Below are positions 54,976-55,258 of a stretch of 64,000 bases of DNA, piece after piece. How positions within the stretch are numbered: the first letter of the stretch is position 1; every line of letters begins with the position of its first letter. Both the position numbers and the translations under genes were made by a program. The DNA lies in the NCBI GenBank assembly GCA_041651395.1, contig JBAZJI010000002.1:13010-77009 (forward strand). The letters run 5' to 3'. Below the pieces are notes generated by a model that was not told the DNA's origin, made no database searches, and was given only the letters and a program-made list of their open reading frames with translations. The DNA is from Minisyncoccota bacterium (GTDB lineage: Bacteria > Patescibacteriota > Minisyncoccia > Minisyncoccales > JAGOPM01).

Positions 54976-55045
54976 ATTGGGTGTACCTTTAGTGTATGAT
55001 CGCTTTCAAAAGGTACATCTACCTATAGTGTTTTATACCATATCA

Positions 55046-55065
55046 AAACACTATATATAGTGTTT
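55046..55065. promoter_or_regulatory. perfect 20-bp palindromic operator aaacactatatatagtgttt
   Basis: Same CACTAnATATAGTG core as the 9.3-9.4 kb sites. Confidence 0.55.
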
Positions 55066-55067
55066 TG

Positions 55068-55177
55068 GTGTATGAAATGTATGAAATGTACCTTTTTTAA
55101 CCATGAGTTTTTCACTTTTTTTATAAAAAACAGTAGAAAGTTTATAGAAATGGGTACATTATGGTACATTCCTACAT
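55068..55177. repeat. ~110-bp iteron/AT-rich element, inverted copy of 25434-25545
   Basis: gtatgaaatgtatgaaatgtacctttt...ttttttataaaaaa...gtttatagaaatgggtacattatggtacattcctacatc; a 21-nt core is identical to the reverse complement of 25442-25462. Confidence 0.65.
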
Positions 55178-55196
55178 CTTTTCTATATTTTGCCTA

Positions 55197-55225
55197 TTGA
55201 CAGAAAACGTATTTTCGACTATAAT
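55197..55225 (+). promoter_or_regulatory. class-E promoter TTGACA-17-TATAAT
   Basis: cctattgacagaaaacgtattttcgactataat. Confidence 0.6.
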
Positions 55226-55258
55226 ACTAATATCTGAGAGCGACAAAGGAGCCGATAA

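Follow-up and report, generated by a model that had tools for sequence, protein, structure and literature searches.

The window analyzed here, a 64-kb stretch (64,000 nucleotides) of contig JBAZJI010000002.1, is part of a phage contig of about 85.5 kb (ENA ERZ27247363), and the same phage has been independently assembled in SRR8542065. Its genes are those of a tailed phage: terminase, tape measure, Dit, and an array of tRNAs. NCBI lists the proteins of the contig under a metagenome-assembled genome called "Candidatus Paceibacterota bacterium", but with a gene set of this kind the label probably arose from a binning error and tells us little about the host. The subject of this work is an element that occurs twice in the window. 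Copy A (25435-25546, minus strand) lies in a convergent intergenic region, between two gene ends, one of them that of a P4-family/D5-like SF3 helicase (23976-25412, plus strand). Copy B (55067-55178, plus strand) lies between a hairpin that ends an open reading frame (ORF) at 54631-54939 and a promoter of perfect consensus at 55197-55225. The two are inverted with respect to each other and about 29.6 kb apart.

The interval between them holds genes for NrdD, an HNH endonuclease, a pentapeptide-repeat protein, an epimerase, and several glycosyl- and methyl-transferases, together with large unknown ORFs. A first-pass annotation of the window had the copies bracketing structural and glycan genes, and enclosing in particular the region from portal to neck. 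The glycan genes are indeed inside. The presence there of structural genes is doubtful, since the recognizable virion genes are outside the pair: terminase upstream of A, and a ClpP-type protease (57429-57974), tape measure, Dit, and Sipho_Gp37 downstream of B. The enclosure of portal and neck genes is not confirmed. A single ORF of the interval, 848 amino acids (aa) in length, matches a "putative portal" weakly and in part (21% coverage), and the identity of the 713-aa and 477-aa ORFs as portal or capsid could not be established.

The repeat pair and its anatomy

The repeat pair is well above chance. When the whole window is searched for repeats, the longest inverted repeat is 25435-25479 / 55134-55178 (arms of 45 nt, 91% complementary) and the second-longest is 25517-25544 / 55069-55096 (28 nt, 89%). 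A MAFFT alignment of 55040-55230 with the reverse complement of 25380-25600 runs through both end blocks. A Smith-Waterman comparison of 55040-55230 with the rest of the window, on both strands, gives as its top match 25434-25537 on the opposite strand, with a score of 85, whereas 100 dinucleotide-preserving shuffles averaged 31 and reached 38 at most (z = 23.6). The self-alignment that the first-pass annotation named as a check is therefore far above chance, and the second inverted copy that it described some 30 kb from the first is genuine.

Most of the remaining description holds as well. Matching end blocks do enclose a diverged, AT-rich middle part of like length: A and B are identical at 22/26 positions in the left arm, at 36/39 in the right arm, and at 22/47 in the center, which is of the same length in both and has an AT content of 87% in A and 81% in B. 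Copy B does lie between a palindromic operator (55045-55066) and a strong promoter. Its limits had been given as 55068-55177; these capture the repeat but not its exact ends, which, placed at the outermost conserved bases, are 55067 and 55178. With boundaries so placed, each copy is exactly 112 bp. The two share an identical core of 24 nt.

Both copies are dyad-symmetric. Tandem iterons of the GGTACATT type, 8-10 bp long and with a period of about 10 bp, flank in opposite orientations an AT core of 47 bp. Copy A, read on the minus strand, consists of a left arm GATGTACCCAATGTATGAAATGTACC (25521-25546), a center (25474-25520), and a right arm GTTTATGAAAATGGGTACATTATGGTACATTCATACATC (25435-25473). 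Copy B consists of a left arm GGTGTATGAAATGTATGAAATGTACC (55067-55092), a center (55093-55139), and a right arm GTTTATAGAAATGGGTACATTATGGTACATTCCTACATC (55140-55178). Sites of the AATGTACC type are found in the left arm at steps of 9-18 bp. In the right arm the same site is reversed and forms tandem repeats at steps of 10 and 8 bp (GGGTACATTAT GGTACATTCC TACATC). The left arm is alignable with the reverse complement of the right arm, and a profile built from the two copies also gives a weak reverse match on each of them. Of the 11 occurrences of GGTACAT in the 64 kb, 8 fall within the two element regions.

Each copy is accompanied by an additional pair of iterons, a second upstream block of similarity that goes beyond what had been described before (GTGTACC...GGTACA, at 54980-55019 and 25637-25662). 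At copy A it takes the form of an auxiliary dyad on the minus strand, GTGTACC-N12-GGTACAC (25637-25662). Upstream of copy B it reads, on the plus strand, GGTGTACC ... GGTACATC (54980-55019). The space between core and auxiliary pair is occupied at copy B by the palindromic operator and at copy A by an AT-rich tract (25555-25636, minus strand) that contains CTTAAT repeats (six within 25550-25700). This tract and the core together make the intergenic region of copy A the least stable duplex in the window, as judged by nearest-neighbor stability, whether calculated over 40, 60, 100, or 200 bp. The region of copy B ranks third at 200 bp.

Conservation of the element in related phages

Relatives of the phage were found by protein-anchored look-ups in metagenome assemblies (their contigs carry L numbers below). 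Other routes gave little. No close DNA relative emerged when both regions were compared by megablast with 50,697 phage records, the exact 24-mer was not found in IMG/VR, and a search for IMG/VR loci with the single primase protein gave no relative. A profile-based search of IMG/VR gave one relative whose helicase is 53% identical (L139), the other 79 loci being at most 41% identical. A degenerate 19-mer, GGTNCATTNTGGTACATTC, had 99 matches in metagenomes and 23 in genomes; these were set aside as chance matches, none being otherwise similar to the window.

Downstream of helicases that are 82%, 62%, and 59% identical to that of the window, the succession of terminator, right arm, AT center, and left arm recurs in the same orientation (nhmmer), and in four lineages the element lies directly after the helicase gene. 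The surroundings of copy B are also kept. In L135 and L138 one finds, in the same order, the terminator, the auxiliary dyad (the iteron pair itself is kept in L135), the operator, a core of 112 or 113 bp, 18 bp, and the promoter. The distance from the inner GTAC of the left arm to the inner GTAC of the right arm is 66 bp in both copies of the window, in copy B of L135, and in copy A of L005, and 65 bp in copy B of L138. The sequences of the centers have diverged.

The iterons differ from one lineage to another (GGTACATT, GGTGCATT, CTACATT), and the two arms, or the two copies, differ together. L007 has AATGTAG/CTACATT in both arms. The relative in SRR22808073 has in both copies the lineage variant GGTGCATTTT in place of the window's GGTACATTAT. 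Copy B of L135 is 83.6% identical to copy A of the window over 116 nt, and the two copies of the window are 76.6% identical to each other.

Then there is the evidence that a single relative possesses both copies. In SRR22808073, one contig ends past the helicase gene (L004) and another starts before the genes for an 88-aa protein and ClpP (L132). The two share an identical terminal 30 nt, AAAATGGTGCATTTTGGTACATTCCTACAT, and then diverge. Logan assemblies presumably use k = 31, in which case an overlap of 30 nt is the k-1 expected at a repeat in the de Bruijn graph. If that is so, then the phage of SRR22808073 has both copies, at the same positions and in the same relative orientation as in the window. 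Comparison with related genomes, another check named in the first-pass annotation, thus speaks for the pair: relatives keep both copies (L004/L132 of SRR22808073, and copy B in L135 and L138). Moreover, the assemblies (L001-L008, L132-L138), two of this phage and six or more of relatives from at least four lineages, all run collinear with the window at both junctions. Judged from sequence, both copies are conserved in relatives at the same places and in the same orientation, are constrained in length and geometry, and are evolving in concert.

Proposed origin-type sites and competing explanations

The gene next to copy A encodes a candidate initiator. The helicase scores 216.5 bits against TIGR01613 (cutoff 108.7), 85.6 against D5_N (22.4), and 23.9 against Pox_D5 (21.4), also matches DUF5906, and has as its relatives in PDB the poxvirus D5 protein and C962R of African swine fever virus (ASFV). 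Its gene ends in an intrinsic terminator (25397-25423, plus strand), which 11 bp separate from copy A's right arm and whose hairpin is terminator-like on the minus strand as well. The last 108 residues of the helicase (371-478, encoded at 25086-25409, plus strand) were modeled from an alignment of 30 sequences with a pLDDT of 83.6; the model shows a winged helix and, after it, a helix at the C-terminus. The top match of this region in a Foldseek comparison with PDB is the DNA-binding domain of RFX1 (1dp7; E = 3e-4, TM 0.72 on target) and the next is the tail of ASFV C962R; the structure of the P4 origin-binding domain (OBD), 1KA8, was not among the matches listed. The tail domain of C962R resembles both the origin-binding domain of P4 gp-alpha and Rfx1, the three belonging to one fold class (PMC10516667), and D5-family helicases bind origins by means of this C-terminal domain (PMC4889955).

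The C-terminus of the helicase, then, models as a winged helix of the RFX/P4-alpha type, and it is this domain that I propose as the binder of the iterons. In the relative with the 82% identical helicase its recognition helix and wing show little or no change, and in the lineages of L005 and L007 they differ. These differences are compatible with the differences amongst the iterons, though they are no proof of a link. The small ORFs nearby (100, 116, 72, 102, 89, and 78 aa) matched no DNA-binding or recombinase family in scans of PHROG, Pfam, and NCBIfam.

I propose, with moderate confidence, that the two elements are origin-type sites at which the phage's own replication initiator assembles on DNA. 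The C-terminal winged helix of the adjacent helicase would bind the iterons of both arms, helicase assemblies would be loaded head-to-head over the AT core, and the core would melt upon their loading. Copy A, which lies beside the helicase gene and within the most meltable DNA of the window, is the likelier primary origin. Copy B, where the late/structural operon begins, would serve as a second origin or else as an auxiliary or barrier site for the same protein, comparable to oriR of SPP1 or crr of P4. I infer from the sequences both that replication starts at the elements and what role copy B plays; what points to one protein at both copies is the concerted change of their sequences.

A core that is more than 80% AT, an extreme minimum in melting stability, and a fixed distance of 66 bp between the arms are hallmarks of an origin rather than of an operator. 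Other properties of iteron origins are found here too: clustered and phased repeats, an AT-rich region of low stability, and a linkage to a candidate initiator gene, with co-variation by lineage. The first-pass annotation had suggested three roles for the pair, and the one favored by the evidence is that of a second origin, or of binding sites for a common protein.

The Bacillus phage SPP1 has two similarly organized origins bound by gp38, one within a replication gene and the other intergenic, among the late genes, with transcription signals on both sides (PMC6316719, PMC3485210). It has been proposed that SPP1 oriR stalls replication forks and, with the help of phage recombination proteins, triggers the switch from theta to sigma (concatemeric) replication (PMC3485210). 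The phage of the window resembles SPP1 in having two distant elements of the same organization, with putative protein-binding repeats and a putative AT-rich unwinding region, one of them tied to a replication gene and the other lying between late genes and flanked by transcription signals. It also encodes, upstream, a Sak4-like ATPase and an ERCC4-family nuclease, and these are compatible with a recombination-dependent late replication like that of SPP1.

The machinery is another matter. SPP1 uses gp38 along with a DnaB-type helicase and its loader, whereas the candidate here is an SF3 helicase of the D5/P4 type that has a predicted winged helix at its C-terminus. Neither a gp38-family protein nor a DnaB-type helicase or loader was detected among the scanned ORFs, in which the helicase candidates are SF3/D5-like and SF1/SF2. 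Unlike in SPP1, the iteron arrays are inverted around the AT core, giving dyad symmetry, the first copy comes after the replication gene rather than inside it, and there is no sequence similarity. By analogy, the phage would work like SPP1 without being a member of the SPP1-type system.

The satellite phage P4 is closer in its protein. Its initiator belongs to the same family (the helicase passes the TIGR01613 cutoff) and, if the model is correct, shares with it a C-terminal winged helix of the RFX/P4-OBD fold class. Ziegelin and Lanka are said to have found in 1995 that P4 requires two separated cis regions, ori and crr, both with one and the same short iteron, which alpha recognizes. The two regions are mentioned elsewhere as well (PMC9942202). 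P4 alpha differs in having a DnaG-type primase domain, absent from the ORF here, and the P4 iteron, TGTTCACC, and the spacing of about 4.5 kb between ori and crr are unlike those of the window.

Two other systems may be compared. The origin of pRN1 is a dyad or stem-loop of about 100 nt that lies immediately 3' of the terminator of a primase/SF3-helicase/winged-helix gene (PMC4234260, PMC2777425). In placement and size class copy A is like it, but pRN1 is an archaeal plasmid with a single copy and no discernible iterons, and its protein has a prim-pol domain. In the palindromic origins of other SF3 helicases, such as SV40 large T and papillomavirus E1, inverted initiator sites flank or adjoin meltable DNA, so that double hexamers can assemble head-to-head. 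The present elements resemble these origins in the inverted arrangement of putative initiator sites at easily melted DNA, and differ from them in that large T and E1 have an N-terminal origin-binding domain of another fold, come from eukaryotic viruses, and bear no sequence relationship to the present case. A double hexamer has been described within the D5 family (PMC12137749).

Several observations weigh against the idea that the elements are origins. The association of helicase and element is not universal: the IMG/VR relative with the 53% identical helicase (L139) has no comparable element downstream. No primase domain is recognizable in the helicase ORF, there being no Toprim or prim-pol match in Pfam and the PHROG primase profiles aligning only from about 330-400 onward, and the window showed no DNA polymerase, which leaves the replication module incompletely known. 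A third copy may exist in the upstream 12.8 kb of the 85.5-kb genome; a search by nhmmer with the two-copy profile found none in the window or in the next 9 kb or so downstream (L133/L134). The folding of the copies as single-stranded DNA is modest (z = -1.5 and -2.0). Finally, copy B is set in a regulatory hub, with three operator-like sites and an 18-bp spacing to the promoter that is kept in three lineages, and this fits a role in transcription equally well.

Such a role is the main rival. Suppose that the iterons bind a phage transcription factor rather than the helicase, and that B, from upstream, activates or represses the promoter of the late operon and A controls a minus-strand transcript across the region downstream of the helicase gene. 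This is possible but, in my judgment, unlikely. In copy B, 18 bp separate the right arm from the -35 hexamer of a perfect-consensus promoter, a spacing identical in L135 and L138. In L132, on the other hand, promoter and element are not neighbors. The same promoter sequence is found at 7574-7603 with no iterons nearby, which makes promoter and element separable modules. Operator palindromes adjoin the element at copy B of the window and in L135, L138, and L005. Promoter-like hexamers, each matching at 9/12 positions, read into the two copies (25689-25661, minus strand; 54971-55000, plus strand), but they are weak and are not kept in L138. Copy A, between convergent gene ends, has no gene to control. 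Nor are the AT core, the melting minimum, and the 66-bp spacing hallmarks of an operator; they are those of an origin.

A variant of the origin proposal goes further and treats the two elements as a functional pair. An initiator bound to both would hand-cuff them or loop the 30-kb interval, or copy B would serve as a polar barrier to forks, and in this manner initiation beside the helicase gene would be physically coupled to the point where the late operon begins. I consider this quite unlikely. If it were true, a previously undescribed lineage of 85-kb siphophages would have a built-in switch from replication to late transcription or from theta to sigma replication, and the copies would be kept identical by an exchange now and then, through gene conversion and possibly a rare inversion.

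It is improbable that the functional form of the element is a hairpin or cruciform, or a structure of single-stranded DNA or RNA, in which a stem-loop of about 100 nt acts as a signal for initiation or for the primosome, or as a small RNA. The origin of pRN1 is just such a stem-loop, 3' of a primase-helicase gene (PMC4234260), and the change in L007 of GTAC to GTAG/CTAC preserves the complementarity of the arms. A symmetric change in the arms is equally expected, however, if one protein reads both orientations. The window's copies fold marginally better than shuffled sequences, as the z values above indicate, a scan of Rfam recognized the tRNA array but gave no match for the element, and a hairpin has no need of tandem direct iterons phased at about 10 bp within each arm. 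In any case this explanation overlaps that of an origin and is no true alternative to it.

The first-pass annotation also raised inversion of the 30-kb segment, by site-specific or homologous recombination between the copies, and this is unsupported. The substrates are there: 24 identical nt in the window and at least 30 in the relative from SRR22808073. Sak4-like recombination functions are encoded, and concerted evolution implies an occasional exchange between copies. Yet no resolvase, invertase, or integrase was found in the scanned ORFs (not every small ORF was scanned), all assemblies of the phage and of at least four related lineages are collinear, with inverted junctions in none, and inversion of the 29.6-kb segment would turn long operons against their promoters. 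Inversion as the function of the repeats is thus very unlikely.

Least likely of all is that the element is mobile, a non-autonomous element of the MITE kind, with terminal inverted repeats, that was inserted twice. One might think so from its form, a discrete unit of 112 bp with inverted ends, sharp boundaries, and unrelated flanks, and from the active TnpB insertion sequence that the lineage hosts. IS200/IS605-type TnpB elements are not known to use terminal inverted repeats. There are but two copies, with no target-site duplication visible at either, and scans of viral, metagenome, and genome collections turned up no related copies elsewhere. Both sites, moreover, are conserved across lineages whose proteins are 59-82% identical. 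Two further candidates, a pac/cos site and a partition centromere, were rejected, the one because terS/terL are 4 kb from copy A and 35 kb from copy B, the other because no ParA or ParB was found.

If the elements are origin-type sites, as I propose, then there is a concrete prediction for the origin of an uncultivated lineage of 85-kb phages: a pair of 112-bp sites, an iteron of defined sequence, and a specific candidate for the binding domain. They would add a likely instance of an origin with dyad symmetry and flanking iterons at which a D5/P4-type SF3 helicase of a bacterial virus acts, and a second likely case, after SPP1 and P4, of a phage with two distant copies of an origin module. Their concerted evolution and invariant 66-bp geometry would provide clean constraints for models of helicase loading. 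The arrangement is already known from SPP1 and P4 and introduces no new principle; the result is at the level of annotation.

Operators, promoters, and other features of the window

The palindromic operator beside copy B, AAAACACTATATATAGTGTTTT (55045-55066), is one of a family of sites, others of which are at 9325, 9392, 9423, 54952, and 55532. The 14-bp palindrome that they share, CACTAnATATAGTG, gives 14 strand-hits as against about 2 expected. The sites are at 9325-9436, 54952-54965, 55049-55062, and 55532-55545 in the window, with others at 11745-11790 in L005, 5464-5477 in L135, and 3548-3561 in L138. The sites are clustered in the early divergent region, at about 9.3-9.4 kb, and around copy B, and in the relatives too they adjoin the iteron element. 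One lies between the -35 and -10 hexamers of a promoter at 55525-55552 and another inside a hairpin at 54944-54974. As a member of its own family of sites, the operator is, by its sequence, a module separate from the element, presumably bound by a different factor.

The promoter that follows copy B (TTGACA-17-TATAAT, 55197-55225, plus strand) begins 18 bp past the right arm and heads an 89-aa gene and the structural genes downstream. After the 89-aa gene come the TnpB insertion, the ClpP-type protease, and the tail genes. The copy of this promoter at 7574-7603 is on the minus strand, with no iterons beside it, and is 93% identical to 55186-55215 (plus strand) over a block of 30 nt that includes the -35 hexamer. 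A second promoter family, 56 nt long (TTGACT...TGTGTTATAAT), has four copies, at 14804, 19480, 34365, and 59787. The existence of such cassettes suggests distinct temporal classes of promoters.

The insertion downstream of copy B is a TnpB-only insertion sequence (55941-57092, plus strand), with HTH_OrfB_IS605, OrfB_IS605, and Cas12f1-like TNB domains. Two direct repeats of 33 nt follow it (57251-57283 and 57312-57344), and the SRR8542065 assembly breaks within these, at about 57279-57312. A tnpB that is 91% identical is located elsewhere in L135 (9130-9998) and L136 (3552-3685), after a gene for dCMP deaminase, and L132 and L138 have no tnpB at the site it occupies in the window. The TnpB element thus appears to be mobile within the phage lineage. 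Of several genes of the homing-endonuclease type, one, an HNH_3/NUMOD4 gene, lies inside the interval (38441-39364, minus strand), and an ORF with a faint Pfam match to LAGLIDADG lies amongst the tail genes in L133 (14072-14872, minus strand). The interval also contains, within a pentapeptide-repeat/DUF7666 gene (39997-40809, minus strand), about 8-10 tandem copies of a 15-bp repeat, CCTGAATTCCAATYG (40328-40492), where one end of the SRR8542065 contig lies.

On the other side, between the terminase and helicase genes, is the array of eight tRNAs (Met, Asn, Ser, Gly, Met, Cys, Trp, and Arg; 22092-22983, minus strand), parts of which are 87-89% conserved in L004. A small HNH ORF (23526-23780, plus strand), another of the homing-endonuclease type, immediately precedes the helicase gene and has a weak match to the HNH region of IscB (33.8 bits, far under the cutoff of 175). 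In L005, a block of about 6 kb (13049-18855) separates the origin-like element from the homologue of the 713-aa gene and encodes a PAPS-reductase/DUF3440 protein, an SNF2 helicase, and an N6_N4 methylase. At that place the window has just the 100-aa ORF at 25753-26055 (minus strand), which weakly matches the C-terminus of a PAPS reductase PHROG and may be a remnant of a DNA-modification module of the L005 type.

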